DNA of 32,000 bases from Telmatocola sphagniphila (GTDB taxonomy: Bacteria > Planctomycetota > Planctomycetia > Gemmatales > Gemmataceae): the NCBI RefSeq assembly GCF_018398935.1, contig NZ_CP074694.1:6560642-6592641 (forward strand), read 5' to 3'. The notes under the pieces were generated by a model, which worked only from the letters and a program-made list of their open reading frames with translations, was not told the DNA's origin and ran no database searches. How positions within the stretch are numbered: the stretch's first letter is position 1; each line of letters starts with the position of its first letter. The position numbers were made by a program, and so were the translations under genes. Below are positions 4,098-26,907 of this stretch, piece by piece.

Positions 4098-4981
4098 GAG
4101 CGAACTCCGGGGTGGGCCGCCCGCCGTTCGAAGAAGCGGATCAAGGCTTCGAGATGGCCGCCGACAGTGGAGACCTCCAGCGAATCGATTCTAGCAGCTG
4201 CCAGTGTCCGTTCGAATTCCCGTCGGCGTTTTTGCACCTGTTCCTGAAAATTTTGCGGAAAGGATTTCTGATTCGTGTCAATGAGACGGATCTGCCCCGT
4301 TTCGGCATCCCGAAGCCGGATTAACCCACTCCGAGGTACTTCTATCTCCGCCGGATCAGTGACCTTCAGAGCGAAAGTTTCGTGACGGCGGGCCATCTGA
4401 CGGAGTGAATTTTCATAGTCTTCCGCCAGAAAATCACTCATCAGAAATACGACGGCCTTACGCAGCTTCAGCTTGTTCACGAAGTCCAATGCAGCCGTCA
4501 GATTGGTTCGTGGGTCGCTCGGCTCGGTCAAGAGGATATCGCTGAGTAAGCGGGGGATATTCATGCGGGCTTTGCCCGGTGGCAGATACCGCTCCACCTT
4601 GCCGGCGAACAAGAGTAGCCCCACTCGATCCCGATTTTCGACCGCGCTCAATGCCAATAACGCGGCCATTTCCGCCAGAATTTGCTGCTTGGTGTTGATC
4701 TCGGTGGAAAAATTCAGGCTGCCGGAGATGTCGATCATCAACAGGATGGTGCGTTGCCGTTCTTCGGAAAAGGTTTTGATGAACGGGGCATTCAGGCGAG
4801 CAGTGACGTTCCAATCGATCGAGCGAATGTCATCGCCCGGCTGATACTCGCGGACTTCCTCGAAAGTCAGCCCGCTGCCTTTGAAAAGAGTGTGATAGTT
4901 ACCTAAAAGAGAGGCCTGCATCTTTCGACGAACTCGCAGGTGCAGTCGTCGAATCAATAGATGCAGGTCCGCGGGAAGCAT
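4094..4981 (-). CDS. DUF58 domain protein (vWA-like, MoxR-associated family)
   Basis: 295 aa. Contains the characteristic YQPGDDIRSIDWNVTARL motif, followed by a vWA-like LLMIDISGSL segment. Confidence 0.8.
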   Translation of the reverse strand: MLPADLHLLIRRLHLRVRRKMQASLLGNYHTLFKGSGLTFEEVREYQPGDDIRSIDWNVTARLNAPFIKTFSEERQRTILLMIDISGSLNFSTEINTKQQILAEMAALLALSAVENRDRVGLLLFAGKVERYLPPGKARMNIPRLLSDILLTEPSDPRTNLTAALDFVNKLKLRKAVVFLMSDFLAEDYENSLRQMARRHETFALKVTDPAEIEVPRSGLIRLRDAETGQIRLIDTNQKSFPQNFQEQVQKRRREFERTLAAARIDSLEVSTVGGHLEALIRFFERRAAHPGVRS

Positions 4982-4986
4982 CCGAA

Positions 4987-7900
4987 CTATTCTCCGGAAT
5001 GGACGATTTCAAACTCACCCACCGAACTAGCCGGCTTCTTCACTTCGATTCGCAGATCGCCCGGATTTCCGGCCGGGAGAGTGGTGCGAACCGAGATCTT
5101 GTGCCGTCCTTTTTCCAGCTTGGATTCCAACTTGAAGGAAGACGTGCCTTTGCCAACTTCTTCTTCGTCAATCCAGATACTGATCGGATTCTTGGAATCG
5201 ATGAGGAATGCAATCTGGCCCGAGACTTTCACTTCGATCTCCCCTTGCAGGTAGACCACACTCTGGCCGGCTTTCTTCAGTTCTGTCAGAGGCAGGCTGC
5301 CGCTGGTCTGAGAGTAGACATTCTCCCAAATTTCCGGTTTGCCACCGATGAAGATCTCTCGGACCTGTTCGCGATTGGGCACGCTGTCCTTGATTTCCGC
5401 CGGAACCGATTTCAGGAGTTTCCAGCGCTGAATCGTGGTTTCCTTGCGGATGGCGTAAGGACCGGCCTTGCCCAGTTCGCTGACGAACCGCATCAGGTCG
5501 AGCAGTTCGCCCTTGGTCAGAATTCGGGTGATGCCTTCGGGCATCAGCGACTTACCGGTCTTTTCTTCTTCGATGTCCGAAACGGGAATCTTGGTGAGCT
5601 TACCGGTCGCATCCTTCAACACCACCAGGTTTTTGTTTCGCTCGACCACGATCCCGGTAATCGTCACACCCGAAGAAGTCGTGATACTCTTCGTCAGGTA
5701 TTCTTCCTTGATCTTGGCACTGGGGTTGAGAATCGACTCGACCACATAATCGACCGGCGAAGACCCGCCGATTGCACAGAGATCGGGACCAATGTTGCCG
5801 CCGGCTTTGTTCACCGCGTGACACTTCATGCAGCCCAGGTCCATCCGGCGGAAAACCGCTTCGCCCCGTTTGGCATCGCCCTGGGCGATCACTTCTTCGG
5901 TCAGTCGCTTGATTTCCGCATCGGTCGGCAGCTTCGGAGAAGCCTCCAACCCGGCGAACTTGCTGACGACGGCCGAAAGCTTCGGATCGTCCTTACCGGC
6001 CAAGTACATGGCCCGCAGAATTCGCTTGGCCCCATCCGCATCGATCTTTTGTTTTTCCAGAGCAGCGGCCAAAGCATCGGTGCCGCCCTTACGCAGAATA
6101 AACGCTTCTACCACAGGAGCCGGATCATCCGATTCCTTGGCGAGGGCCAGAGCCGAGGCTGCGGCATTAGCACCGGCGGTCAGGTCGAACTGAGCCAGAG
6201 CCGTCGCGGCCTTAAAGCGGATCGACAGCGGATTTTCTGCAGCCGTCAGCTTCTTCAGCGTTTCCGCATCTTTGAAGCTGGCCAACGCATCGAGAGCATT
6301 TTGACGCAGCGATAGGCTGGCCTTGCTGTCGGTCGCCACCTTCTCGATTTCCGGGGTTGCGGATTTGGTCTTCCAGGCGGCGGCCAGTCGGATCGCTTCC
6401 GCAATCAATTCGGGATGACTGCCCGAGAGCAGTTTCACCACAGAGGCATCTTCCACGCTAGGCAAAACCAGTCGGGAAGTGGCCGCTTCACTCAACCAGC
6501 CCAGAACTTTCTTCTGCAAGGTCGGTGGATAGCTGTCGAATTTATCCCAAATGCTCTTCAATTCCGCCTTGGTGCCGTGCTTGCAGATAGTTTCGATCAA
6601 CGCCGGTTTGCGCTCGTCCGGAATCGAACCCTTATTCAGCATCGCCACCAGCCCGGCGGCAATATTCTTCTGATCGATTTTGCCGGTGCCCAAACGTCGT
6701 TCGAGTGTCACCAGCGTTTCGTTGAATACGTAATTCAAACCTTCATCCAACGGCTGAGACAAAAGTTCGAGAGCCGCCGAGAGGGCTTCTTCTCCACGGA
6801 AGAAGCTAAGAGCCCGAATGGCTTCCAGTCGTACGCGCGGGCTGGAATCGTTGATTTGAATTCGCAGCAGTTCAATCGGCTTCTTTACATGATCGCGCAT
6901 GTAGCAGAGCACGCGGGTGGCCGCGGCCCGCGCCTTTTCTTCGGGAGCCCGCAACTCGCGAAGCAGAAGTTGCTCGTTCAGCACGTTGTGAGACTGGTGC
7001 AGCCAGAGAGCTTCCAGCATATTGTGTTCGTAGTTCGGGTCGTCGCTCTTGAGATTGTTAACCCAGACGTTCAAAGCCGCCACCACTTCCGCCGTCGGCT
7101 TCGAAGTCAGTTCAACGCGAGCGCGATAGCGAACTCTATCGTTGTTATCCTTCAGCAGTTCGAGGAGCTTTTCCGTCGATTCGCCTGCAATCTTCACCGG
7201 TTTTTCGAGTGGACGGCCTTCGTAGGTCACCCGGTAGACCCGGCCGTGCAGGTGGTCGCGGCTCGGGTCACGAAGGTTATGTTGCATGTGGCCGATGATC
7301 GGGTTCTGCCAATCCGAAATGTAAATGGCTCCGTCCGGGCCAACTTTCAAGTCGGAGGGGCGGAAGTTTGGATCGCTCGAGTATACGATCGGTTCCTGTT
7401 CGATCCCCTTGATCTCGGAACCTTGATCGTTCAGTTTATAACGGAGAATCCCCTGGAAACCGATCACATTACCGACCAGCAGGTTGCCCTGCATTTCCTC
7501 GGGGAAATTACTGCTGGAGAGAATTTCCATACCCGGGCAGGGGCGAGTACGCTGCCGGTAAACCGTCGGCGTGTTGTTGTGCTTGTTATTGCCATCGACC
7601 TGACCGCTGAACAACGCGGCTTGATAGGGAACCGAACCGGTGCCGTCGATGACAATATCCTGGCCCCAGCGGTCGAAAATGTGGCCGTGCGGATTCGCGA
7701 AGGGATACGCGACATAGACTTCCAGCGATTGCGTGCGCGGCACGTAACGGTAGACCCCGGCATTCGCGTTGCGAACGCTCGGCGTGTAAGGCGTTTCGAT
7801 TTGAGAATGGTGGAAGGTCCCTTCCTGGAAGTAGATCGCCCCACCCGGATCCAGCACGAAGCTATTCGCGGCATGGTGCGTGTCGGCACTGTCGATACCG

Positions 7901-9348
7901 CTGATAACGGTTTCGCGATAATCGGCTTTGCCCGATCCCTTGGTGTCTTTCAGGAAGACGATATTCGGTTGCTGGGCCACCAGGATGCCGCCGTTCCAGA
8001 ATTCGAATCCGGTCGGGCAATGCAGGCCATCGGCAAAGACGGTGCACTTATCGGCCACACCCGTACCTTTGGTGTCTTCCAGAATCAGGATCTTGTCGTT
8101 CATCTGATCTTTTGGCTTCCAGTGCGGGTAGGAATTCCAGGTGGCTACCCACAACCGGCCCTGGGTGTCCCAGGTCATTTGCACCGGTTTAATCAGATCC
8201 GGGAACATCTTCTCATCGGCGAAGAGGTTCACCTTCATGCCTTTGCCAACCGTCATCTTGGAGATGGCTTCTTTGCCATCGAGGAACTGGTGCAGGCCGC
8301 CCGCTAAGGGGCCCGGCTTGTTGGTTTGAACCGGAATGAAATCCTTGGTTTTCGAATCGTCGATGGTGTAGTTTTCACCTTTGCAAACGGCCCAGATCTT
8401 GTGATCGCGCAGTTCGCACATTTCATCGAGAATTTCCATTTCGCGCTGGGCGACGACGCGGTTGGTCTGGCCGCCGACGAATTTCAGGTCGGCCCGGCCG
8501 CCGTAGACCGAGTAGCCATCAACCGTGCGGTAACGCATGAACCAGTGGAAGTTGAGATCTTTTACCGCCGTGCGAATCTCTTCAAATTTGGGGCTCGGAG
8601 GTGTCGGCCCGAACAGGCTAGTATCGATGATCTTGGCCAGTTCGGCATTGCCGTGATCGTTCAGATGGACGCCGTTGATGGTCCAGGGGCGGGTAGCGGC
8701 GGGATAGGCGTTCAAGGTCGGGTGGAACAGGTCGACGAATACGACCTTATTGGCCTTGGCCACATCGGCCATCGCCTGCGTGTACAGACTCAACCGGCGG
8801 TTATGTTCTTTGCCGTCTGGTAGGTTGGTGCTGTGCAGATTTTCGAAGGCAATGGGGGAGAAGAGAACGATTCGTTGGATTTGTTTGTAAGGGCCTTTGC
8901 TTGCAGAGCGGCCACCGGTGCTCGCTTGCACGCCGAAGGGTTTGCCTTCGCGGGTGGCGACAACCCACTCCGTCAGGTCCTTTTTGAATTTTTCGAGCCC
9001 GGCGGTATCGCCGTAGGATTCGTTGTAGCCGAAGAAGGCGAAGATCACGTTGGCGCCTACTTTTTCCTGCCATTGGGCCGGTTCGCCGAACGCGGCGGAG
9101 CGGAAGCGGATCGTGAGTTCATCGCCGCTGTAGCCGAGGTTGCGGATGGTCAGGTCGTGTTTGGGGAAGCGGGAGTGCAGGTAGGTTTCGAGGTAACCTT
9201 CGTGCTGCATCCGGTCGGGCAGGGTATTGCCGACGAGGGCGATGTGGTCTTTGGGTTGGAGTTCGAGTTTTTCCTGGGTGTAGCCTTGGGAATTGATGCA
9301 AAGTAGCATCGCCAGTAGGAGTACTGGCCGGAAGGAGAGAAAACGCAT
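4987..9348 (-). CDS. secreted multidomain protein: SGNH/GDSL hydrolase-like N-terminus, PVC-type heme-binding CxxCH (membrane-bound dehydrogenase-like beta-propeller) region, HEAT repeats and a cytochrome c domain
   Basis: 1453 aa. Signal peptide MRFLSFRPVLLLAMLLCINSQG; GDSL-like IALVGNTLPDR...GYSGDE; HEAT-like repeats (DNNDRVRYRARVEL, SPRVRLEAIRAL); heme motif CMKCH followed by ...GPDL... The domain order is typical of planctomycete/verrucomicrobial proteins. Confidence 0.85.
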   Translation of the reverse strand: MRFLSFRPVLLLAMLLCINSQGYTQEKLELQPKDHIALVGNTLPDRMQHEGYLETYLHSRFPKHDLTIRNLGYSGDELTIRFRSAAFGEPAQWQEKVGANVIFAFFGYNESYGDTAGLEKFKKDLTEWVVATREGKPFGVQASTGGRSASKGPYKQIQRIVLFSPIAFENLHSTNLPDGKEHNRRLSLYTQAMADVAKANKVVFVDLFHPTLNAYPAATRPWTINGVHLNDHGNAELAKIIDTSLFGPTPPSPKFEEIRTAVKDLNFHWFMRYRTVDGYSVYGGRADLKFVGGQTNRVVAQREMEILDEMCELRDHKIWAVCKGENYTIDDSKTKDFIPVQTNKPGPLAGGLHQFLDGKEAISKMTVGKGMKVNLFADEKMFPDLIKPVQMTWDTQGRLWVATWNSYPHWKPKDQMNDKILILEDTKGTGVADKCTVFADGLHCPTGFEFWNGGILVAQQPNIVFLKDTKGSGKADYRETVISGIDSADTHHAANSFVLDPGGAIYFQEGTFHHSQIETPYTPSVRNANAGVYRYVPRTQSLEVYVAYPFANPHGHIFDRWGQDIVIDGTGSVPYQAALFSGQVDGNNKHNNTPTVYRQRTRPCPGMEILSSSNFPEEMQGNLLVGNVIGFQGILRYKLNDQGSEIKGIEQEPIVYSSDPNFRPSDLKVGPDGAIYISDWQNPIIGHMQHNLRDPSRDHLHGRVYRVTYEGRPLEKPVKIAGESTEKLLELLKDNNDRVRYRARVELTSKPTAEVVAALNVWVNNLKSDDPNYEHNMLEALWLHQSHNVLNEQLLLRELRAPEEKARAAATRVLCYMRDHVKKPIELLRIQINDSSPRVRLEAIRALSFFRGEEALSAALELLSQPLDEGLNYVFNETLVTLERRLGTGKIDQKNIAAGLVAMLNKGSIPDERKPALIETICKHGTKAELKSIWDKFDSYPPTLQKKVLGWLSEAATSRLVLPSVEDASVVKLLSGSHPELIAEAIRLAAAWKTKSATPEIEKVATDSKASLSLRQNALDALASFKDAETLKKLTAAENPLSIRFKAATALAQFDLTAGANAAASALALAKESDDPAPVVEAFILRKGGTDALAAALEKQKIDADGAKRILRAMYLAGKDDPKLSAVVSKFAGLEASPKLPTDAEIKRLTEEVIAQGDAKRGEAVFRRMDLGCMKCHAVNKAGGNIGPDLCAIGGSSPVDYVVESILNPSAKIKEEYLTKSITTSSGVTITGIVVERNKNLVVLKDATGKLTKIPVSDIEEEKTGKSLMPEGITRILTKGELLDLMRFVSELGKAGPYAIRKETTIQRWKLLKSVPAEIKDSVPNREQVREIFIGGKPEIWENVYSQTSGSLPLTELKKAGQSVVYLQGEIEVKVSGQIAFLIDSKNPISIWIDEEEVGKGTSSFKLESKLEKGRHKISVRTTLPAGNPGDLRIEVKKPASSVGEFEIVHSGE

Positions 9349-9748: not shown

Positions 9749-11017
9749 TTGGGTATCATACCCAAATTCGGCATGGAGGCCGCAATGTCCAAGAAGCTCC
9801 CCCAACTCCGATTACACCGTCCGTCCGGCCAGTATTACTGGTGGAATGGCCAACTCAAAAGACGAATCCACTGCGGCCTCATCAAGGCCGAAGCGGAGAA
9901 GAAATACCATCGAGACATGGTTCGTTATGCCGAGAGGCTAGTCTCGCCCCAGCCCCTCGAACAATCACTCACTCGCTTGGATGATCCGACCGTCGCCCAG
10001 GCCCTGGCGGCTTACGTGCGACATGCTCAGGGATACTACTCTCACGACAAAAGGACTCAATCCCGGATCAGCCAAGCGACGCAGGCGGTCGTCGAGCTCT
10101 ATGGAGATCTTCCCGCTCGGGAGTTTCGCGCCAAGCATCTCAAAGCAGTTCGCGCTTACCTGGTCGATACGCGTAAAGAACGAAGGGAGCATCTGAAGTC
10201 CCGCAAGCCTCGACCTTTGTCGCGTCGTTATATCAATCACCTGGTCGCGGCCATCCGAGCTGCCTGGCGTTGGCTGGGAGTGGAAGAAATCATTCCCGAT
10301 GAAGCCGCCACGAGCGTGATGCTCGTCAGCGATCTCTCCGAAGGCAGAGGCGGTGTCGAGCGGGGCCGTGTGATGCCCGTTCCTGGTTGGGTCGTCGAAG
10401 CCACGCTGCACTTCTGTAACCCTGTGATCGCCGCCATGATTCGCGTGCAGCTTCTGCTCGGATGTCGGCCTTCGGAAATAGCTCGCCTCAAAAGGGGAGA
10501 TCTCTCGACGTCGGTCACCGAGCTCGTGAAAGTTCCCCGCTCGAATGAGACGATTCGGGCCAGAGTGGTCAACGATCAGCTGATCTGGCTCGGAGTGCCG
10601 GGATCTCACAAAACGATCCGACTCGGCAAATTGAGAGTGCTCGCCTTTGGACCCCAAGCTCAAGAAATCCTAAAACCTTTCCTCGATCGCAATCCGGAGG
10701 AGTATCTGTTCTCGACGATTGAAGGGGGCCAGCGCGGGCCTAGAAAAGGTAAAGGGTTCTACGAGACTTCGACGTACGGCCAGGCGGTAATGCGTGCTGT
10801 CCTGCGGGCCAACGAAGTGAGAGCCAAGGAACAACTGCCACTCATTCCCCACTGGACTCCGAATCAGTTAAGGCACAGTCGCGCTACCGAGATCGTGGAA
10901 AGGTTTGACGAATCCCACGCGACGGCCGCACTCGGCCATTCCTCGCCCAGGATGCTCAGCGTCTACGCCGAACAGGCGATCGGCAAGGCTATCGAGGTCG
11001 CGCGTCTGGCGGGCTAG
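9749..11017 (+). CDS. tyrosine recombinase / phage integrase
   Basis: The C-terminal catalytic region contains ...LLLGCRPSEIARL..., HWTPNQLRHSRATEI and LGHSSPRMLSVYAE (R..H-x-x-R..Y signature). The true start is probably ATG 9773 or 9785 (MSKKLPQL...), not the TTG at 9749. Confidence 0.9.
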   Translation: MGIIPKFGMEAAMSKKLPQLRLHRPSGQYYWWNGQLKRRIHCGLIKAEAEKKYHRDMVRYAERLVSPQPLEQSLTRLDDPTVAQALAAYVRHAQGYYSHDKRTQSRISQATQAVVELYGDLPAREFRAKHLKAVRAYLVDTRKERREHLKSRKPRPLSRRYINHLVAAIRAAWRWLGVEEIIPDEAATSVMLVSDLSEGRGGVERGRVMPVPGWVVEATLHFCNPVIAAMIRVQLLLGCRPSEIARLKRGDLSTSVTELVKVPRSNETIRARVVNDQLIWLGVPGSHKTIRLGKLRVLAFGPQAQEILKPFLDRNPEEYLFSTIEGGQRGPRKGKGFYETSTYGQAVMRAVLRANEVRAKEQLPLIPHWTPNQLRHSRATEIVERFDESHATAALGHSSPRMLSVYAEQAIGKAIEVARLAG

Positions 11018-11071
11018 TTTGTCAATAAAGACGGATATTTTTGATCTGATCTGGACGTTACTTCAAGTGTG

Positions 11072-11497
11072 TCAAACTAAACCATATCGCATTCGGGTGT
11101 ATTCGAACGCCTCGTCGATCCAGTCCTCAAACCCTTCTGGAAGATCTGGGCTGGTCAGCATGATGCAGCCTTTTGATAATTGCGACTCCTGATCCTCTTT
11201 GCTGCGTTCCATCTTCAACCGTTGGAGCGGGCCGTTTGCTGTAATGAAGCGACTATCGGGTCTGACTCGCAGCTCCCATAACAGAGCATCGCCTCTTGGC
11301 TCAAAAATTGAGAGTATGTGCTTTCTGTCTGAGTTGGGATTCTCCCAACCAACTCGGACTTCTTGAATAGTCGAATTTCTGGGAAAATCGACACCGTAAA
11401 GGCCTGCACCATGTCGGCAAAGATGTGGGAGAAGTCGCGAGGCAATAAATATTAATTGCGGATTCCAGTTGGAAAACAAAAAGAAGTTCTCGTTCAC
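11072..11497 (-). CDS. hypothetical protein (integrase-adjacent, opposite strand, lower GC)
   Basis: 141-aa ORF in a lower-GC stretch (about 11.04-11.65 kb) flanked by AT-rich spacers. I recognise no motifs. Confidence 0.5.
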   Translation of the reverse strand: MNENFFLFSNWNPQLIFIASRLLPHLCRHGAGLYGVDFPRNSTIQEVRVGWENPNSDRKHILSIFEPRGDALLWELRVRPDSRFITANGPLQRLKMERSKEDQESQLSKGCIMLTSPDLPEGFEDWIDEAFEYTRMRYGLV

Positions 11498-11658
11498 AGC
11501 AAGTCTCTCTGAAGTGAGTTACCCAACTGACATTTGATTCTATTTGGGGAAGTGCTTTGAAATTGAAATATTGTTCACAACCGAGATAGAGCTCAGGGAA
11601 TTCTACAAATAAACTTTTCCTTAAGGAATTCGGCGGCCAAGGATCGGCCCTTTCTTTA

Positions 11659-11946
11659 TTGATCTACGATCCCTGGTGCCCTGTGCTCAAGCTAACCTCA
11701 CGGCAGAAAAGCGTCCTCGAATTCATCATTCAACACTTCTTGCAATTTCACTCAGTCCCATGCTGCCGGGACATCTGCAGCCAATTCGAATTCCGATCTC
11801 CGAACGCGGCGACGAACTACCTCCGCACGCTCTTCAATAAAGGCTACATTGCGAAACGACCTGTAGAAAAGCCCGGCCGCGGTTACTCCATCCTCCGAAA
11901 TCCGGACGGTTCTCTTTTTCGCATCACCCTTCTCGTAGCGAGCTGA
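11659..11946 (+). CDS. LexA N-terminal DNA-binding-domain-only protein (winged helix)
   Basis: LTSRQKSVLEFIIQHFLQFHSVPCCRDICSQFEFRSPNAATNYLRTLFNKGYI aligns by eye with E. coli LexA [53 protein letters not shown] (FRSPNAA is identical). Only 95 aa: no Ala-Gly cleavage site and no S24 peptidase domain. TTG start. Confidence 0.7.
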   Translation: MIYDPWCPVLKLTSRQKSVLEFIIQHFLQFHSVPCCRDICSQFEFRSPNAATNYLRTLFNKGYIAKRPVEKPGRGYSILRNPDGSLFRITLLVAS

Positions 11947-11958
11947 CAGAAGTCCCAC

Positions 11959-12366
11959 ATGCCTAGTAAAATTTGCGTGCGAGCATGCCTGCTCTGGTGT
12001 GCCCGATGGCTCGTTCGTCGACCTTCGGGAAAGCCGACCGGTCGGATAAGAGTCGAGATCACCGATCTGGCGACTGGTGCGTCCGTGAGAATCTGCGGCG
12101 AAGCGGACAGTCGGATGCCTTCTCCTTGGACGGAAACCATTTCTCCTTTGCCCGGTGGTCACATTGTGGCCGCCTTCAGTGAAGAGGACGAATTGATCCT
12201 CAAAGCGATTCGCGACGCCGGCGTTCTCCCACTGAAGCAGCTGATCATCGCCATGCGGAGCAACATGGGCGCCACGCTCTGCAAGTTTCACGTGAAGAAT
12301 CTCCGCAAGCGAAATGCCGTGCAACTCACGCCCGATGGATATACCATCGCCACCGACGTTCCCTGA
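11959..12366 (+). CDS. hypothetical protein, possible small winged-helix protein (start uncertain)
   Basis: Third-codon-position GC is high in this frame, especially from about 12115 (MPSPWTE...EEDELILKAIRDAGVLPLKQLIIAMRS...). The competing minus-strand ORF 11752-12324 looks like an antisense artefact. Confidence 0.45.
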   Translation: MPSKICVRACLLWCARWLVRRPSGKPTGRIRVEITDLATGASVRICGEADSRMPSPWTETISPLPGGHIVAAFSEEDELILKAIRDAGVLPLKQLIIAMRSNMGATLCKFHVKNLRKRNAVQLTPDGYTIATDVP

Positions 12367-12546: not shown

Positions 12547-12909
12547 ATGGACGAGGAAAGAGAAATGACGCGAGACGAGCAACAAGAGATGACTCGACGC
12601 CTGAAAAGGGAAGGATTGATCCGACCGAATACCGCCGCCCAGTTCGCGGAAGTCGAGCCCGCGGTGATCTGGCGATGGATCGTCAAAGGAGTTCGCGGAG
12701 TAAAGCTCGAAGCCACCCAGGGACCAGGTAACGGCTGGTTCACATCGAAGGAAGCCATCCTCCGATTCTTCGCGGCCCGATCTTCGATCGAGCGCACCCG
12801 ACTCAGCCAGGCGGAATCGCCCACCCGAAAGCAGGCGGCGAAAGGGTTGACGGAATTCCAGGAAGCGATCGCCGGATTGCGAGCCGCAAAAACGAAAGTC
12901 GCCCAATGA
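12547..12909 (+). CDS. small HTH DNA-binding protein (excisionase/AlpA-like guess)
   Basis: From ATG 12547: MDEEREMTRDEQ...NTAAQFAEVEPAVIWRWIVKGVRGVKLEA...WFTSKEAILRFF, an HTH_17/MerR-like pattern. The stop overlaps the next start as ATGA (12906-12909). Confidence 0.45.
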   Translation: MDEEREMTRDEQQEMTRRLKREGLIRPNTAAQFAEVEPAVIWRWIVKGVRGVKLEATQGPGNGWFTSKEAILRFFAARSSIERTRLSQAESPTRKQAAKGLTEFQEAIAGLRAAKTKVAQ

Positions 12910-14212
12910 AAATCGTCGAACGCCTGATCGCATCGATCAAGCCCTATGAGAAGAACCCTCGGATCAACGACGGAGCCATTGAAGCCGTTGCGAAATCGAT
13001 CCAGGAGTTTGGCTTCCAGCAACCGATCGTCGTCGACACCAAGGGCGTGATCATCGTCGGTCACACCCGGTATCGGGCCGCTCTGCAGCTCGGGCTGAAG
13101 AAGATCCCGGTGCACGTCGCCGCCGGATTGACTCCCGCCCAGGTGCGGGCCTACCGGATCACCGACAATCAGACCTCGACGCTTTCTTCCTGGGATGAAG
13201 AGAAGCTGATCGTGGAGCTGATGGCCCTGCAGAAGCTCGACTTCGATCTCGATCTCACCGGCTTCTCCGCTTCACAGCTGGCCGACTTCTTTGCGACCGA
13301 AGCGAAGCCTGGCCTGACCGATCCCGATGACGTGCCCGCTCCGCCCGATGCGGCGAAGACGAAGCCTGGCCAGATCTGGATCCTCGGTAATCACCGGCTG
13401 ATGTGCGGTGACTCCTCCAAGCCTGAGGACCTCGACCAGCTCCTGGCTGGCGAGCCGATCCACCTGGTCCACACCGACCCGCCTTACAACGTGAAGGTTG
13501 AACCGCGAAGCAACAACGCGATCGCGGCGGGGCTGTCGTCTTTCAAAGCGACCCATCACCAGGGCTTCGACGTGAGCCGGAATCCGGGGAAGGCGAAGGG
13601 CACGACGAAGAAACTGCGTGCGAAGGATCGACCACTGGCCAACGACTATGTGAGCGATGAGGCCTTCGATCGACTGCTGCAGGCCTGGTTCGGCAATTTC
13701 TCTCGAGCTCTGCAGCCAGGTCGATGCTTCTACCTCTGGGGCGGGTACGTCAACTGTGCGAATTACCCGGGAGCGATCAAATCGAACGGGCTCTATTTCT
13801 CGCAAGCGATCATCTGGGTTAAGGACCATCCCGTTCTCACCCGGAAAGATTTCATGGGGGATCATGAGTGGTGCTTCTACGGCTGGAAACAGGGGCGGGT
13901 CACAAGTTCTTTGGACCGAATAACGCTCGCGATGTCTGGTCAGTGAAGAAGGTCAGCTCCGCCAAGATGGTACACCTCACCGAGAAACCAGTCGAGCTCG
14001 CGACCCGCTCGATCGAGTACTCGTCGAAGCCCGGCGAGAACGTGCTGGATTTATTCGGAGGGTCCGGATCCACGCTGATCGCGGCCGAGCAGACCGGCCG
14101 GCGGGCGTACCTGATGGAGCTCGACGCGCTCTACTGCGATGTGATCGTCGAGCGGTGGGAGAAGTTTACCGGGAAGAAGGCGAAGCTCAGTCCCGCCAAC
14201 AAGAAGAAATAG
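12906..14212 (+). CDS. ParB-like nuclease domain / DNA methyltransferase fusion (N6A/N4C beta-class), interrupted by a 1-nt frame disruption (possible pseudogene or assembly error)
   Basis: ParB-N motifs (YEKNPRIND...IIVGHTRYRAA). DPPYN catalytic motif at ...LVHTDPPYNV. The AdoMet motif LDLFGGSGSTLIAAE is found only in the second ORF (13868-14212). The frames join as ...CFYGWKQG/AGHKFFGPN... at the G-run 13892-13895. Confidence 0.8.
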
Positions 14213-14272: not shown

Positions 14273-14944
14273 TTACGAATCGCGGTTACGAATTCCGCAG
14301 TGAGGACAGCGCTTCAAATTTTTTAGTCTGAGGTGACCGCAGTCTTTACAAGACGCTAGTGGTCCCAACGGCCTGGCGGAAGCGTACACCCACCATCCAA
14401 GGGCTGCATTCACATTCACCAGAATGAAGATCCAAAACATCTCAATGCCAAAAAGTCCCCGACTGCGAGCATCTCGAAGTGTAATTCTTAACAATACTAT
14501 TTTCATAAATATCGCTGCCGACAGAAATATGAGCAGCAGTAGACTCTGCGCAATAGAAGCATGCCGATCGAATTTGTTAATGATTTGATTTCGAAGATCG
14601 TGGAAGTTCCAGTAACTGCACCAAAAAATGATTTCTATAACTATATCCGCGATGAGAAATCCAAGTGATGGATCGGCATTTAACAAGTTATTAAATCTGG
14701 AGCCTGTTATTAATTTTGCGTTTTGAACCGCCTCCGCATAATCCTCTTGCTTCGCACCGTGAATATCGGGATCGAAGCTGATCTCGACTGGCTCCTTTTT
14801 GATCGGAGCATATACGATTCCAACGCCATCCACCGCGGGAATAACAAGTTCCGTTCCGCACTTGGGGCATTCAGAAATTCGACCAATCTTGTGATTAGGG
14901 GACTTTAGCGATGCATCGCATTTTGGGCATGTGAATTGAATCAT
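14273..14944 (-). CDS. membrane protein with N- and C-terminal zinc ribbons (co-transcribed with the repressor; exclusion candidate)
   Basis: 223 aa. N-terminal CPKC...CPKC ribbon, three hydrophobic helices (LGFLIADIVIEIIFWCSYW; SLLLLIFLSAAIFMKIVLL; MFWIFILVNVNAALGWWVYA) and a C-terminal CKDC...CPHC ribbon. GC is markedly low. It starts 33 nt downstream of the XRE gene stop on the same strand. Confidence 0.7.
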   Translation of the reverse strand: MIQFTCPKCDASLKSPNHKIGRISECPKCGTELVIPAVDGVGIVYAPIKKEPVEISFDPDIHGAKQEDYAEAVQNAKLITGSRFNNLLNADPSLGFLIADIVIEIIFWCSYWNFHDLRNQIINKFDRHASIAQSLLLLIFLSAAIFMKIVLLRITLRDARSRGLFGIEMFWIFILVNVNAALGWWVYASARPLGPLASCKDCGHLRLKNLKRCPHCGIRNRDS

Positions 14945-14976
14945 GGCTCAGATTTGAGCTTGGGAGCCCAACTCAG

Positions 14977-15306
14977 TCAAGAGGATTTTTCTTCCGAGGA
15001 TGTTCCCTCGTCGTCTTTATTCGGATCCTTTGAGCGTGGACGACCTTTAGCCGGCACACCAGGATCGGTCGTCGGATCGGCGAATAGCAGCTCAACAGGG
15101 ACACCCAGGGCTTCTGCGAGCTTTTTCACTGCGGTCGCCTTGGGCTCTTTTTCGCCCCGCAACCACTCAGAAATACTGGATTGACGGAAGCCCGATCGCC
15201 TGGCGATCTCGGCGCCGCTTACTCCCTTTTCGTGGAAAAGCTCTCGTAGCCGCTGGGCAAATTGCCCGGGGGTCACGGGATCAAAGACTTTCTCAAGAAG
15301 TAACAA
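14977..15306 (-). CDS. XRE/Cro-CI family HTH repressor (putative prophage immunity repressor)
   Basis: QFAQRLRELFHEKGVSGAEIARRSGFRQSSISEWLRGEKEPKATAVKKLAEALGVPVELLF is a classic HTH_3 domain. The gene is divergent from the early operon, with operator-like repeats in the spacer. The start is TTG (15304-15306) or downstream of it. Confidence 0.8.
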   Translation of the reverse strand: MLLLEKVFDPVTPGQFAQRLRELFHEKGVSGAEIARRSGFRQSSISEWLRGEKEPKATAVKKLAEALGVPVELLFADPTTDPGVPAKGRPRSKDPNKDDEGTSSEEKSS

Positions 15307-20837: not shown

Positions 20838-22079
20838 ATGTTCCAAATCGAATGTGCCCCGGCCGATCTCGCCCAGGCGATCGCCTCGGTCGAGCGAGGC
20901 TGTTATCCCTCCGCCGTCAAGCCGGTACTGGGGATGGTGAAAGTGACCGCCGATCGCGAGGAGGGGATTCTCTTCGAGGCGACCGATCTCAATGGCGGGA
21001 TCCGTCGCCGCCTTGAGAAAGCCACGGTGCAGGACGAAGGCGCGATCCTGATCCACCCGGCCCTGGTCGGCCAGTACGCCTCGCAGTGCCGCGATGAGCT
21101 GCTGACGCTCGCCGGCAACGGGAGCGCGACCTCGATCACCACCTTCCGCACCGAGTGGGAGATGCCCGCCGAGGATGTCGGGCTCTTCCCGCCGCTGGCC
21201 GAGATCCCGAGCGGTCCGGAGACGATCGAGGTCAACCAGAAAGATCTGCACCGCGTGCTCAATAGCGTGCTGTTCGCCGCCAGGAACTTCGGGGAGACTG
21301 CCAAGTTCGGCTCCTCCGATGGCAAGGCGATCATCATCCTCGAAGTGGAAAAAAACCTCTTAAGGGCGATCGGCACCGATCTCAAGCATCTGGCGGTTGC
21401 GGAGGTTCACGCCCGCGTGCACCACTCTCTGATCGGTTTTTCCTGCATGGTGCCGGTCGGCTCGATCCGCATGTTGCTGGAAAATCTGGAAAGCGTCGAG
21501 GAGCTGGCCATGGTCTTGATCCGCCGCCAGGGCCACGGCCTGTTGAGCTTCAGCGCGAAGACCTGGGACATCATCGCCCGTCTGGCCGAGGGCCGCTCGC
21601 CCCCTTGGAAGAAAATCATCCCGACGAATCCCAAAGGCAAGATCACGGCGGACGGTGATTCCTTGAGCCGGGCCTTCCGCCAGGCGGCGATCTTCGCCAA
21701 TCAGGAGTACCACACCGTCCGCCTGAGCTTCACCGCCGCCGTGGGTCCGCACACCAAGGAAGGCATCACCTTCGATACGTTGTCGCGAACGGGCGAGCGC
21801 AGCCAGGTCGACCTCGACTGCAATTACCAGGGACCCGATCTGTCGATCGCCATCGACGTCCGCTATCCGATCCGCTTTCTGGAAGCGAGCCGCCACGACC
21901 AGGCTACCGAGGTCACGATCGAGATTACCAGCGACCAGAAACCGCTGGTCTTCCGGCGCGGTCCTAAGGTGCTGTTCATCATGGCTCCGCTCGATCTGAA
22001 AGCAATCGAAGCGGCCCGGGTGGCCAAGCTGGAGGAAGAAGCCGAGAAGGAAGCCCGGAAGAAAGCGGCCGCCGCGTGA
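20838..22079 (+). CDS. dnaN: DNA polymerase III beta sliding-clamp homolog (phage-encoded)
   Basis: 413 aa. The N-terminus L..AI..V.........PVLGMV...........FEATDL, a mid-region AIGTDLKHLAV (compare ATDGHRLA), ...GRSPPWKKIIP (compare G.FP.Y..VIP) and the C-terminal ...PLVFR....VLFIMAPL follow the three-domain DnaN pattern. RBS AAAGGAG. Confidence 0.75.
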   Translation: MFQIECAPADLAQAIASVERGCYPSAVKPVLGMVKVTADREEGILFEATDLNGGIRRRLEKATVQDEGAILIHPALVGQYASQCRDELLTLAGNGSATSITTFRTEWEMPAEDVGLFPPLAEIPSGPETIEVNQKDLHRVLNSVLFAARNFGETAKFGSSDGKAIIILEVEKNLLRAIGTDLKHLAVAEVHARVHHSLIGFSCMVPVGSIRMLLENLESVEELAMVLIRRQGHGLLSFSAKTWDIIARLAEGRSPPWKKIIPTNPKGKITADGDSLSRAFRQAAIFANQEYHTVRLSFTAAVGPHTKEGITFDTLSRTGERSQVDLDCNYQGPDLSIAIDVRYPIRFLEASRHDQATEVTIEITSDQKPLVFRRGPKVLFIMAPLDLKAIEAARVAKLEEEAEKEARKKAAAA

Positions 22080-23935: not shown

Positions 23936-24142
23936 GGGAGAGAAATCGATCAGAATATGCTTTTACGCTAATGAATAAAGTGAGCTGAGGGTCGATTAGG
24001 AATAAGACCTTGTTGGGGTCAAGCTGGATACTTCATCACTCGACGAATCAGAACTGAGAAAAAATTTGGATTGCATTTGACAAGTTTGGCTCTAAAGCTG
24101 AAGATACGGCATCCTTCAATCCTAGAGCCTACCTAGAAAACT

Positions 24143-25174
24143 ATGAGCGACAGTAGCTTTTATGAGCGATTAGAAAATATCGCCACTTCCAAGCAACTAC
24201 ATCAGATACTCAGAGATCTCAAAAAGGACCATCCTAAGGAAATACAAGTCACTGGGCCAAAAAGTGATCTTGTCCAGAGACTACGGCGCGCTGTAGATGA
24301 CGGGCTTATTCCAATTACAGAAGTTCGTTCATTGCTTCACGAATGCGAAGAAAATGGCCATCAGCATATCTGGTACTATCTGCCAAACTCTGGATCTTTG
24401 AGTTTTTGTAAAAATTTCAAACGATTCGCTAGCCAGTTCGAGGTAAAGAATGAAGTAGATCTTAGCGACTTTCCGAAATTTAAGGTGACACGGGGCAAAC
24501 TGGAATGGGCTGATTTCAGGGAAGAAGAGATTTCCAAGCAAGATAAAGCTGGTAAATGGACGATTAAATTTTACGGCCATGAGGATCGCCACCAATGGGA
24601 TTCTCCACCTATAATTAAAGGCAACACAATAACCCAGCACGGAAAAGTAGTCGACGATTACTACACTGCGGTAGTGAGATGGAATCCGCCTGACATTTTG
24701 GAACTCCGACTCACAATCACGCATAGCAGGGCCAAGTTGCTAGCAAGGCTAGAAGCCATTTGGCAAAAGCTAAGTTTTGGAATTAAGTTTGCAGATTGTA
24801 CTCCGTGGGATCTTTCTGAAGCGAGAAACAATCTTTTTGCGTCTCGTGGCGTTAACTCCAAACGGTACCAAATTTGCACGACTACTATCATAGATCCAAG
24901 CTCAGGAAGTACGTCGTTCTCGCCACGCGACAGCGCAGAGCTTTTAGAAGATGAAAGGGTTAGAGCAGATGCTGTCAAACTTTTTGAACAGAATGGGTGT
25001 AAGCCATCTACGTTCGCAGTGAACTGGTTGGATTTGCCTAATAAAGAACAAACTGAGCTAAGAACGATTATTACCCCTCGTCTTACTCACAATAACGAAA
25101 TCGTGATTACGTCAAAAACTTCTTCTAGTACCGTAGATTATGTCACGCGTGAACTTCGAAAATTTAGCTCATAA
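24143..25174 (+). CDS. cassette gene A: hypothetical protein with SAP-like N-terminal motif
   Basis: 343 aa, low GC. The N-terminus ...SKQLHQILRDLKKDHPKEIQVTGPKSDLVQRLRRAV resembles the SAP helix-extended-helix motif (G.K..L+.RL). The remaining roughly 290 aa have no motif I recognise. Confidence 0.65.
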   Translation: MSDSSFYERLENIATSKQLHQILRDLKKDHPKEIQVTGPKSDLVQRLRRAVDDGLIPITEVRSLLHECEENGHQHIWYYLPNSGSLSFCKNFKRFASQFEVKNEVDLSDFPKFKVTRGKLEWADFREEEISKQDKAGKWTIKFYGHEDRHQWDSPPIIKGNTITQHGKVVDDYYTAVVRWNPPDILELRLTITHSRAKLLARLEAIWQKLSFGIKFADCTPWDLSEARNNLFASRGVNSKRYQICTTTIIDPSSGSTSFSPRDSAELLEDERVRADAVKLFEQNGCKPSTFAVNWLDLPNKEQTELRTIITPRLTHNNEIVITSKTSSSTVDYVTRELRKFSS

Positions 25175-25496
25175 GAAGCCTGAACTCGCCAGCGTTTTCC
25201 GTGAGCTTCAAGCTTGGGTTGATCGCCATCCAAGGACGAATTTTTTGGAGGGTGTTCGACTGACGAAAGAAATGCCTGACTTGGCTATTTCTGATTTGTA
25301 TGCGGCTCTGCTCCTTAGTGTCGAGAGCGGGCTAACTCATCGAGTATTCAAGTTTCGGGACCCTCACGGTCAGCTACTTGATGATGACTTTGAAACGTTG
25401 GATAAAATCCCTGAAACTTTTCCGGATCGCCTACATCAACATTATTATCGACGTGAGGATTGTGATCTGATCTCCGGCTACAAGCTTGAGGGGTAA
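25140..25496 (+). CDS. cassette gene B: hypothetical small protein
   Basis: 118 aa. It overlaps gene A by 35 nt, and its stop overlaps the gene C start (TAATG). An alternative later start exists at 25272. Confidence 0.55.
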   Translation: MSRVNFENLAHKKPELASVFRELQAWVDRHPRTNFLEGVRLTKEMPDLAISDLYAALLLSVESGLTHRVFKFRDPHGQLLDDDFETLDKIPETFPDRLHQHYYRREDCDLISGYKLEG

Positions 25497-26080
25497 TGGA
25501 AGAGTTCCAATTTCCATTCCCTGTACACCTACCTGATGAAATGCACTGTTTCGTCAGAAATTTTCGCGATGCCCTCAGGAACGGAGCAAATCCGTTCACT
25601 CTCAAATTTGATCTAACATCAGAAGCTAGTAAAATGTTTGGTGTTACTTTTTCTCATGACTTCCTGGAAATTCTCTCTCATTTTGAACGGGGTAACATCG
25701 TGGTCAACAACTCAGGATCAGGAAACGTTTCGGTTCAAAAAGCTGGCGGCTCGATGGTAGGAGTCGTTGGCGCAGGCGCGACGGCAGAATTTGGAGACAT
25801 CAATGCTTTTTGTACTTGGATTAAAGACAGTGAAGTGAATGCTGATCTGAAGTCTGCAATTCTTGGCGGTCGAGATGAAATTAATCGTGAAGTAAAAGAC
25901 CCAGAAGAAAAGGAAGCGGTTCTCGAAGCGTACAAGAAACTCGCCGAAGAAGCTGTGAAACAACAGCCTAAACCGAGCGTGTTGAAGACAGCTTGGGGGG
26001 CGATAAAATCGATATTAAGTTTGGGAGAAGCAGTTCCCTGCCTGGTCAAGTTAGGAGAACATCTAGGCTTGCCAATTTAA
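25496..26080 (+). CDS. cassette gene C: hypothetical protein with a Gly-rich segment and a hydrophobic/amphipathic C-terminal tail
   Basis: 194 aa. NNSGSGNVSVQKAGGSMVGVVGAGATAEFGD, then a charged helix (DPEEKEAVLEAYKKLAEEAVKQ), then KTAWGAIKSILSLGEAVPCLVKLGEHLGLPI. Confidence 0.6.
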   Translation: MEEFQFPFPVHLPDEMHCFVRNFRDALRNGANPFTLKFDLTSEASKMFGVTFSHDFLEILSHFERGNIVVNNSGSGNVSVQKAGGSMVGVVGAGATAEFGDINAFCTWIKDSEVNADLKSAILGGRDEINREVKDPEEKEAVLEAYKKLAEEAVKQQPKPSVLKTAWGAIKSILSLGEAVPCLVKLGEHLGLPI

Positions 26081-26262
26081 GCTCACCTTCTTGTTTTCAG
26101 AAGTTAATTTAGATGCGTTCCAGGATTCAATTAATTTATAGAGTCCTGGCTTGCTGTAATTGCAACTCCTTTCTCTAATCTTGTCAAAAAGTTTCAGCCT
26201 GCCCACTTCTCCCCCATCTGCTACCCTCAAGCCTGTGCATAGCTACCGCACGCATAGAAATT

Positions 26263-26907
26263 ATGGCCAAAAAACCGACCAAGCGGCCCCGGAAGGCCGC
26301 GTCCGTGCCCCGTAAACCGCCGCCGCGCAGCGTCCGCCAGGAGGTCCTGGGCGAGCGCCGGCTCGTGGAAATCGCCGAGCTGTACGCCACCGGATTCACG
26401 CAATGGGAAATCGCCGAGCGGTTCGGGCTGAACCAGAGCACCATCTCCCGCGCCCTCGACGATTGCCGCAAAGCCTGGCGGGAAACGTATGCGGCTCAGT
26501 TCAACGAGCGGATCTACACCGAGCTGGCCAAGATCGACGCCCTGGAGATCGAGGCCTGGCGGGCCTACCGCCGCAGCTGCCAGGATCAGAAGCGATCCAA
26601 GATCCGCACGATCGACCAGAAGAAAGAGCAGGCGGTGACCATGGGCTCCCGCGACGGCGAGCCCCGTTATCAGGAGATGGTGCTGAAGTGCATAGATCGA
26701 CGATTGCGATTGCTCGGCCTGGATGCCCCGCAGAAGTTTGCCCCCACCACTCCCGATGGGACCGAGCCTTATGATCAGCTGTCAACGGAGGACCTGATTG
26801 CTCGCCGCCAAGCCATTGTCGAGCGACTCCAGTTCGTCGAGAAAGCAACAGGAGCGCGAGCTGCTGAGGCTCGACCGCGAGCTGCTGATCCGATCCGCAA
26901 GAAGTAA
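26263..26907 (+). CDS. terS: terminase small subunit (HTH type)
   Basis: Basic N-terminus, HTH (GFTQWEIAERFGLNQSTISRAL), then ...ELAKIDALEIEAWRAY...CIDRRLRLLGLDAPQK..., a pattern common to small terminase subunits. It sits directly upstream of TerL. Confidence 0.7.
   Translation: MAKKPTKRPRKAASVPRKPPPRSVRQEVLGERRLVEIAELYATGFTQWEIAERFGLNQSTISRALDDCRKAWRETYAAQFNERIYTELAKIDALEIEAWRAYRRSCQDQKRSKIRTIDQKKEQAVTMGSRDGEPRYQEMVLKCIDRRLRLLGLDAPQKFAPTTPDGTEPYDQLSTEDLIARRQAIVERLQFVEKATGARAAEARPRAADPIRKK

Follow-up and report, generated by a model that had tools for sequence, protein, structure and literature searches.

We report that a prophage of Telmatocola sphagniphila (Planctomycetota) carries a three-gene cassette that is real, conserved, tightly coupled, compositionally foreign, mobile, and unannotated. 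The cassette occupies positions 23936 to 26262 of the window, by which we mean the whole 32,000-nucleotide (nt) stretch of contig NZ_CP074694.1 analyzed here, and its three same-strand genes are called A, B, and C. A sequence-only reading of this DNA had described the region as a candidate novel prophage-borne defense or accessory system, an interpretation that our analysis supports in part. Tentatively, we favor the view that the cassette is a Rex-like abortive-infection or exclusion system, in which a DNA-sensing A-B unit would control a membrane-active C protein.

A compositionally foreign three-gene cassette

Gene A (24143 to 25174, + strand) encodes a protein of 343 amino acids (aa) and 39.6 kDa that is 100% identical to KIH39_26445 and is the proposed DNA-binding sensor. 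Gene B (25140 to 25496, + strand) encodes an acidic protein of 118 aa (pI 5.6), the proposed obligate partner of A, and gene C (25496 to 26080, + strand) encodes a 194-aa protein that is 100% identical to KIH39_26455 and is the proposed effector. The lengths of the three open reading frames (ORFs), the 35-nt overlap of A and B (25140 to 25174, + strand), and the TAATG sequence shared by the stop codon of B and the start codon of C were all confirmed as the sequence-only reading had given them. The AT-rich spacers that it had estimated at about 200 and 180 nt measured 207 nt upstream (23936 to 24142; GC content, 0.41) and 182 nt downstream (26081 to 26262; GC content, 0.43), and they form the left and right edges of a low-GC insert.

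The deviation in composition that had been read from spot counts was borne out by sliding-window calculations of GC content and by GC content at third codon positions (GC3). In 500-nt windows, GC content was 0.42 to 0.45 over positions 24001 to 26000, compared with 0.58 to 0.66 in the flanking windows, and in 100-nt windows the low-GC edges were sharp at about 23930 and about 26200. Per gene, A, B, and C had GC contents of 0.43, 0.47, and 0.45 and GC3 values of 0.40, 0.44, and 0.39, whereas the 11 flanking phage genes ranged from 0.58 to 0.64 and from 0.68 to 0.83, respectively. Within the prophage, the cassette lies where the replication module gives way to the packaging module. On its 5' side lies a rightward replication block comprising a replication initiator, a primase-helicase, a DnaN-like clamp, and a GNAT protein. 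On its 3' side lie a helix-turn-helix (HTH) protein in the terS position, terL (phrog_38, E = 5e-54), a portal gene, and a gene for a head-morphogenesis protein.

The cassette genes are linked across a large family and travel on mobile elements

Of 1.84 billion cluster representatives (clusters at 50% identity), 530 were related to A in a profile search at E <= 1e-3, 171 of them at E <= 1e-30, and a word-indexed search returned only five relatives. None of the relatives carries a name beyond "hypothetical protein." No match to A was obtained by tblastn in 50,697 phage and 72,556 plasmid records, and degenerate-pattern scans found none in species-representative genomes or in IMG/VR viral contigs, the only hits being three metagenome loci. 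Since the family was not found in these collections with the probes used, it appears to be essentially environmental.

The window and 13 further loci with sufficient flanking sequence gave a sample of 14 loci. In all 14, A was followed by a B homologue, fused to A in two cases, and then by one more same-strand gene in the C position; the linkage of the three genes in other genomes, on which the idea of a single system depended, was therefore observed throughout, with A-B fusions besides. Homologues of A, B, and C at 16 to 39% identity occurred in the same order on unrelated contigs, which argues that the three are real genes and not chance ORFs in AT-rich DNA. The GC content of the cassette was lower than that of the rest of the locus in 13 of the 13 loci measured, by 2 to 14 points.

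The carriers of the cassette were diverse. They included a phage-like contig with portal, DnaB, integrase, and terminase genes (L005); a Mu-like phage in which the cassette lies between tail genes and other genes (L016); a TrwC-relaxase conjugative element (L006); a ParAB/RPA plasmid on which a HigA-family (dnstrm_HI1420) gene adjoins the cassette (L018); three integrase-adjacent sites (L001, L007, and L019); and a site adjoining an IS1595 transposase and a P4 cII-like gene (L017). Multigene linkage, a modular C position holding three classes of protein, and carriage on mobile elements, which formed one part of our operational definition of an anti-phage defense system (the other being enrichment next to known defense genes), were thus all found in the 14 loci.

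A and B are coupled by a conserved overlap and by natural fusion

The overlap of A and B, including the stop codon, measured 17 to 50 nt in the nine loci in which B was called in full and 35 nt in five. In most loci, including the window, the ATG of B lies within the codons of a "DYVT" motif at the C terminus of A (GAT TAT GTC AC read as ATG TCA C), and a B start in or near the last A codons was also seen in L001, L002, L004, L005, L008, L010, L014, L016, L017, and L019. This short dual-coding overlap has been kept across proteins that are just 25 to 37% identical. In L005 and L019, the open B frame reaches back to an ATG inside the 3' end of A; automated gene calls had truncated B in these two loci and had missed it in L007.

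Homologues of B, at 20 to 39% identity, were present in 10 other loci, and A and B were fused in 2 of the 14. Proteins of about 470 to 520 aa made up 5 of 146 family representatives (about 3%), and the sequence that they carry beyond A at the C terminus corresponds to B (hhalign probability 97.5%, E = 7e-12; BLASTP E = 5e-13). B itself gave no Pfam, NCBIfam, PHROG, PADLOC, or PDB-sequence match, and Pfam scans of 11 B homologues revealed nothing consistent. Taken together, the fusion, the overlap, and the invariable adjacency of the two genes speak for A and B functioning as a single unit.

Protein A is predicted to adopt an RdgC-type fold

We modeled A with AlphaFold2 from an alignment of six sequences, which gave a mean predicted local distance difference test (pLDDT) score of 72.9 and a predicted template modeling (pTM) score of 0.70. 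The model consists of a four-helix N-terminal domain (residues 1 to 72) followed by a mixed alpha/beta core (residues 73 to 343), which is basic (pI 8.8). In a Foldseek search of the PDB, matches at E < 1e-3 were obtained only with Escherichia coli RdgC, Pseudomonas aeruginosa RdgC, and human CENP-N (E = 3e-4 for RdgC entries 2owl/2owy and 9e-4 for CENP-N). Against BFVD, a collection of predicted viral structures, the top eight matches were all phage proteins (E = 4e-8 to 2e-4; 324 to 390 aligned columns), of which five were annotated as RdgC, recombination-associated, or exonuclease proteins. For the predicted model, the Foldseek probability of the RdgC fold was 1.00 over about 300 to 390 aligned columns, nearly the full length of A.

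According to the report of the lambda RexA crystal structure, RexA shares a single DNA-binding fold with RdgC and with the kinetochore proteins IML3/CHL4 (CENP-L/N) (PMC11077077), and the A model matches two of these three groups. The statement in the sequence-only reading that the cassette bears no signature from known defense families was therefore too strong, because the A model falls in the RdgC/CENP-N fold class to which RexA has been assigned (PMC11077077). For the same reason, the cassette resembles a known design, that of RexAB, and is not without precedent. We infer from the fold that A binds DNA.

The SAP-like DNA-binding motif that had been proposed near the start of A (residues 35 to 50, nt 24245 to 24292) was not established: the Pfam SAP match was below threshold (E = 0.069; 13.3 bits versus a cutoff of 23.9), and such a match was present in only 2 of 52 A family members. 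Pfam scans of these 52 members showed nothing consistent, and RdgC was not among the Pfam families returned for A at E <= 1 or for the 52 members at E <= 0.1. Separately, we noted that the motif "EENGxQH" (A residues 69 to 75), located where the N-terminal helical domain meets the RdgC-like core, is invariant or nearly so in the 52 diverse family members.

The C position is interchangeable and in some loci holds membrane proteins

The AlphaFold2 model of C had an overall pLDDT of 61.6, with values of 72 to 88 for residues 100 to 194. A helical N-terminal region of low confidence is followed by a Gly/Asn-rich segment (residues 49 to 98, nt 25640 to 25789) that is predicted to be disordered and then by a C-terminal helical domain (residues 100 to 194, nt 25793 to 26077) that ends as an amphipathic, hydrophobic hairpin. 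Pfam, NCBIfam, and PHROGs returned nothing significant for C, and a profile search against all PDB sequences returned nothing credible. Comparison of the C profile with lambda RexB by hhalign gave a probability of 0.2%, and we rejected C as a RexB relative.

Residues 97 to 189 of C matched the PADLOC model PDC-M14B (E = 3e-8). The claim that the cassette lacks recognizable motifs was therefore not quite correct; A and B matched no family or defense model. The alignment of C covers positions 166 (or approximately 155) to 257 of the 267 in the model, leaving about 150 N-terminal positions unmatched, and the same region was matched by four of the five other window-type C proteins tested. The partner model, PDC-M14A, had no match in A, B, an A-B fusion, or another A homologue (E <= 0.1 to 1).

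The C position was occupied by the window-type family in 10 of the 14 loci and by unrelated proteins in the other 4. Each of these four alternative proteins has two strong transmembrane (TM) helices, the cutoff for the C position being a Kyte-Doolittle mean of >= 1.6, and three of them are small (155 to 175 aa). The remaining one (L002:9451-10503, + strand) is a 350-aa DUF676/alpha-beta-hydrolase protein of esterase/lipase-like type with its two TM helices at the C terminus. It carries an "HSFG" motif resembling a nucleophile elbow and is weakly similar to the Tle3 phospholipase, and it looks like a lipase-type alternative effector. We also considered an N-terminal adaptor common to the two-TM proteins and the window-type C proteins and rejected it: in a hidden Markov model (HMM) search with 92 decoys, the best E value, 0.18, was at decoy level.

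Such an arrangement, in which a constant two-part front end is coupled to membrane-directed back ends that can be exchanged, typifies sensor-effector conflict systems. The idea that the window C protein may itself act at the membrane draws its main support, which is indirect, from the fact that membrane proteins can take its position.

Next to the A-B fusion of L006, directly 5' of it, we noted a truncated, C-like gene of 117 aa (L006:9546-9896, + strand). Its product matches the C-family HMM (E = 4e-32) and is 39% identical to residues 70 to 168 of the window C protein, with the hydrophobic tail replaced by an apparently frameshifted end. We therefore regard L006 as carrying an intact cassette alongside a second effector gene that has decayed.

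A Rex-like model and the alternatives to it

In the mechanism that we tentatively favor, A and its obligate partner B would form a cytoplasmic DNA-binding sensor, with the RdgC-like fold of A following its small helical domain, and C would be a membrane-active effector that stays inactive until the sensor is triggered. Upon superinfection, the A-B unit might recognize a DNA or DNA-protein structure generated by the phage and, presumably through contacts among the three proteins, release or activate C. The C-terminal helical domain of C and its amphipathic hairpin would then damage or depolarize the membrane, which would stop growth and abort the infection, so that cells carrying the cassette would be expected to show an anti-phage phenotype. 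A broader proposal, which we hold with greater doubt, is that A-B-C may be the founding example of a widespread, unnamed family of mobile-element abortive-infection systems (about 530 clusters), in which an RdgC-fold clamp and its small partner would sense phage DNA and fire interchangeable membrane-disrupting effectors.

Several results weigh against the Rex-like model. Searches of Pfam, NCBIfam, PHROG, and PADLOC gave no significant model for A, and the A profile had no match among all PDB sequences at E <= 10. The fold assignment of A rests on a model of moderate quality (pLDDT 73), and the TM-scores of its matches were just 0.31 to 0.40; such low scores are expected of a horseshoe-shaped, multidomain protein, but confidence in the assignment is limited nonetheless. 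The RexA structure was absent from the top 50 PDB Foldseek matches of A. Comparison by hhalign of the 52-sequence A profile with the single RexA sequence, a test of limited power, gave a probability of 0.2%, as did comparison with E. coli RdgC, and neither family was accepted as the home of A. Because A has no sequence relation to RexA or RdgC, and because the RexA structure was not among its top 50 matches, we place A, as modeled, within the RdgC/CENP-N/RexA fold class and in neither the RexA nor the RdgC family.

Further points against the model concern B, C, and the surroundings of the cassette. The cassette has three components where RexAB has two, and B has no Rex counterpart. No TM segment is predicted in C, the maximum 19-residue Kyte-Doolittle mean being 1.28, and a fold search of the PDB gave C no structural neighbor (best E = 0.34). 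Of the tail that the sequence-only reading had ascribed to C, the amphipathic character was retained, but a clear TM segment was not; its suggestion of a membrane-active effector gained indirect support from the two-TM proteins at 4 of the 14 loci and from the recurrence of the C-terminal domain of C in PDC-M14B. A literature search for PDC-M14 yielded no paper, and PDC-M14 is a computational candidate only. A PADLOC scan of 92 neighbor proteins from 11 loci, made without a background control, gave scattered single components at E <= 1e-5, namely, a PD-T4-6-type kinase, mad2/mad6, an LTD protein, MkoA, and MzaA, and no complete defense system was seen among these proteins. Finally, transcription signals were not found. 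A promoter scan gave no qualifying sigma-70 site in the upstream spacer, in which a perfect TTGACA hexamer (24077 to 24082) is followed by a weak -10 candidate, and a terminator scan gave no terminator-like site on the + strand of the downstream spacer.

Among the loci sampled, L008 had the most defense-island-like neighborhood. There, the 6 to 8 kb upstream of the cassette include genes for a pentapeptide-repeat/TIR-domain protein (4174 to 5250) and for another protein that weakly matches MmeI_N/HSDR_N_2 (2557 to 3363).

Three other explanations were weighed. It is unlikely, in our judgment, that the cassette is a toxin-antitoxin or addiction module, in which C would be a membrane-damaging toxin and A-B a DNA-binding antitoxin and autoregulator, so that cells losing the element would be killed with no sensing of phage. 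Such a role would suit the presence of the cassette on the ParAB plasmid beside a HigA-family gene, on the conjugative element of L006, and on integrative elements. The tight translational coupling would suit a fixed stoichiometry, the toxin position is swappable, and the truncated C-like remnant beside the intact cassette of L006 is counted in its favor as well. However, A, at 343 aa, together with B is large for an antitoxin, the order and sizes of the genes fit no known toxin-antitoxin family, and no PADLOC or Pfam toxin-antitoxin model was matched. Since many toxin-antitoxin-like modules prove to act in phage defense, this explanation overlaps the Rex-like model rather than excluding it.

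The structural matches of A bear on a second explanation, namely, that A is an RdgC-like accessory of DNA metabolism that modulates RecA, recombination, or replication restart for the element, with B and C as helpers and no part in defense. The closest matches of A are indeed RdgC and phage proteins annotated as recombination-associated RdgC, and in the window the cassette directly follows a replication module with a primase-helicase and a DnaN-like clamp. However, the RdgC-like phage matches are individual proteins, whereas A is invariably accompanied by B and by a membrane-type gene in the C position. Moreover, A and RdgC are not similar in sequence, the cassette is foreign in composition to the replication block that precedes it, and it is also found away from replication modules, as in the Mu-like phage of L016 and beside the insertion sequence (IS) element of L017. 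We consider this explanation quite improbable.

Accessory genes at the module boundaries of prophages often encode exclusion proteins, and this, with the small membrane proteins found at the C position, speaks for the last and least probable explanation, in which the cassette would serve superinfection exclusion or modulate the lysis-lysogeny decision without suicide, C blocking DNA entry at the envelope or A biasing the switch. Although RexA has been reported to be able to tip the lambda switch toward lysis without the help of RexB (PMC11077077), the cassette is also carried by plasmids and conjugative elements, which lack any lysis-lysogeny switch, simple entry blockers need no DNA-binding cytoplasmic partner, and the esterase/lipase-type protein of L002 looks like a destructive effector.

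Prophage setting and other features of the window

Host genes extend to about 9.3 kb of the window and include those for arginine decarboxylase, a DUF58 protein, and a DUF7133/HEAT/GDSL protein (4987 to 9348, - strand). The left boundary of the prophage lies between the last of these and a tyrosine integrase gene (9749 to 11017), which marks the left end of the prophage. No tRNA gene was found anywhere in the window, and the attachment site used here is therefore not a tRNA gene. A gene for a cI-like HTH_3 repressor (14977 to 15306, - strand) lies about 9 kb from the cassette.

A search for an empty site identified one related Gemmataceae prophage (L020), from which the cassette is absent. L020 shares only terL, the portal gene, and a head gene with the window prophage, and all genes upstream of these differ; the insertion boundaries of the cassette consequently cannot be defined from it, and the proposal of a variable slot upstream of terS was an overstatement for which L020 is the one comparator. 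No convincing target-site duplication or terminal inverted repeat was found among the repeats flanking the cassette. RNA folding of the spacers was not significant (z = -0.8 and -1.7), and neither spacer had an Rfam match.

The two AT-rich spacers each hold one copy of an inverted pair, TTTGACAAG (24076 to 24087 and 26177 to 26188), the upstream copy of which spans the perfect TTGACA hexamer. About 0.14 such pairs are expected between two spacers, which puts the pair at chance level; it could nevertheless mark the ends of the cassette or promoters. Within the terS-like HTH gene, a 20-nt direct repeat, GGAAATCGCCGAGCTGTACG, occurs at 26367 to 26386 and 26406 to 26425, with 90% identity and a spacing of 39 nt, and encodes a repeated EIAE(L/R) peptide.

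Elsewhere in the prophage, a second low-GC patch (0.44 at 14501 to 15000) coincides with a 223-aa zinc-ribbon ORF (14273 to 14944, - strand) that directly adjoins the cI-like repressor gene and could represent a further accessory gene acquired in the immunity region. A third dip in GC content (0.48, window 11001 to 12000) lies just to the right of the integrase gene, where the small ORFs have no family match. The prophage also encodes a DnaN-like sliding clamp (20838 to 22079) with all three beta-clamp domains at weak E values and a fused ParB-N-like/DNA methyltransferase protein (12906 to 13946; phrog_498, E = 3e-88).

Significance and comparison with known systems

Few phage-exclusion systems have been known for as long as RexAB. 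To our knowledge, the mechanism of its sensor is still unresolved, very few of its relatives have been characterized, and the phage biology of the Planctomycetota is almost unexplored. If the Rex-like model is correct, the cassette would be a three-component, sequence-unrelated analogue of RexAB and would tie the RdgC/RexA/CENP-L/N fold more generally to immune sensing. The RexAB design would then be widespread and not a peculiarity of lambda, embodied in a large family of unrelated sequence with a swappable membrane effector. The natural A-B fusions, the three classes of C-position protein, and the EENGxQH motif would provide comparative material on the coupling of an RdgC-type binder to membrane killing. 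About 530 protein clusters that are named in no database would gain a role, the effector domain of the PADLOC candidate PDC-M14B would gain a function, and a defense-type system would be added from the Planctomycetota. Even as an addiction module or a recombination accessory, the cassette would represent a new and widely distributed gene set of mobile elements. In either case, a large uncharacterized family, with a hypothetical function in defense, is opened to direct experiment.

Our literature search found no description of an RdgC-like anti-phage or membrane abortive-infection system, the sole relevant link being the RexA structure paper. The nearest described analogue of the cassette is RexAB, and a tested precedent is RexABpp of Pseudomonas putida (PP_5643-5644), a prophage-encoded defense system that pairs a RexA-fold DNA binder with a membrane protein lacking homology to RexB and in which overexpression of RexApp causes effector-dependent membrane permeabilization (PMC12894663). 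Like RexAB, the cassette is a small, prophage-borne, same-strand operon in which a gene for a cytoplasmic protein predicted to fall in the RdgC/RexA/CENP-L/N fold class precedes one for an effector; in several loci, this effector is a membrane protein of the multi-TM type. The cassette and RexAB have no effector sequence in common, as is also the case for lambda RexB and P. putida RexBpp (PMC12894663). The differences are equally evident. A lacks sequence or profile similarity to RexA, as C does to RexB; the fold search retrieved RdgC for A, not the RexA structure, and A has an extra N-terminal helical domain; C of the window is helical and looks soluble, with an amphipathic tail, whereas RexB is a four-TM channel of the inner membrane; and the cassette is located away from the repressor gene, with the replication module on one side and the packaging module on the other. 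Homology to RexA in sequence, a four-TM RexB, and a two-gene operon next to the repressor gene were thus each looked for and are absent.

Two other comparisons help to place the cassette. RdgC and the RdgC-like phage proteins are the best structural matches to the A model, over nearly its full length, and the A core is of similar size (about 270 to 300 residues); however, A has no detectable RdgC sequence similarity, has an added N-terminal domain, and is always linked to B and an effector-like gene with which it moves as a low-GC mobile cassette. With PDC-M14, the cassette shares the Gly-rich segment and C-terminal helical domain of C, which match the PDC-M14B profile, but only the C-terminal third of that profile is matched, and A, B, and the A-B fusions match neither PDC-M14A nor any other PADLOC model. 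The likeness of the cassette to RexAB is therefore one of design and fold class, not of family membership.

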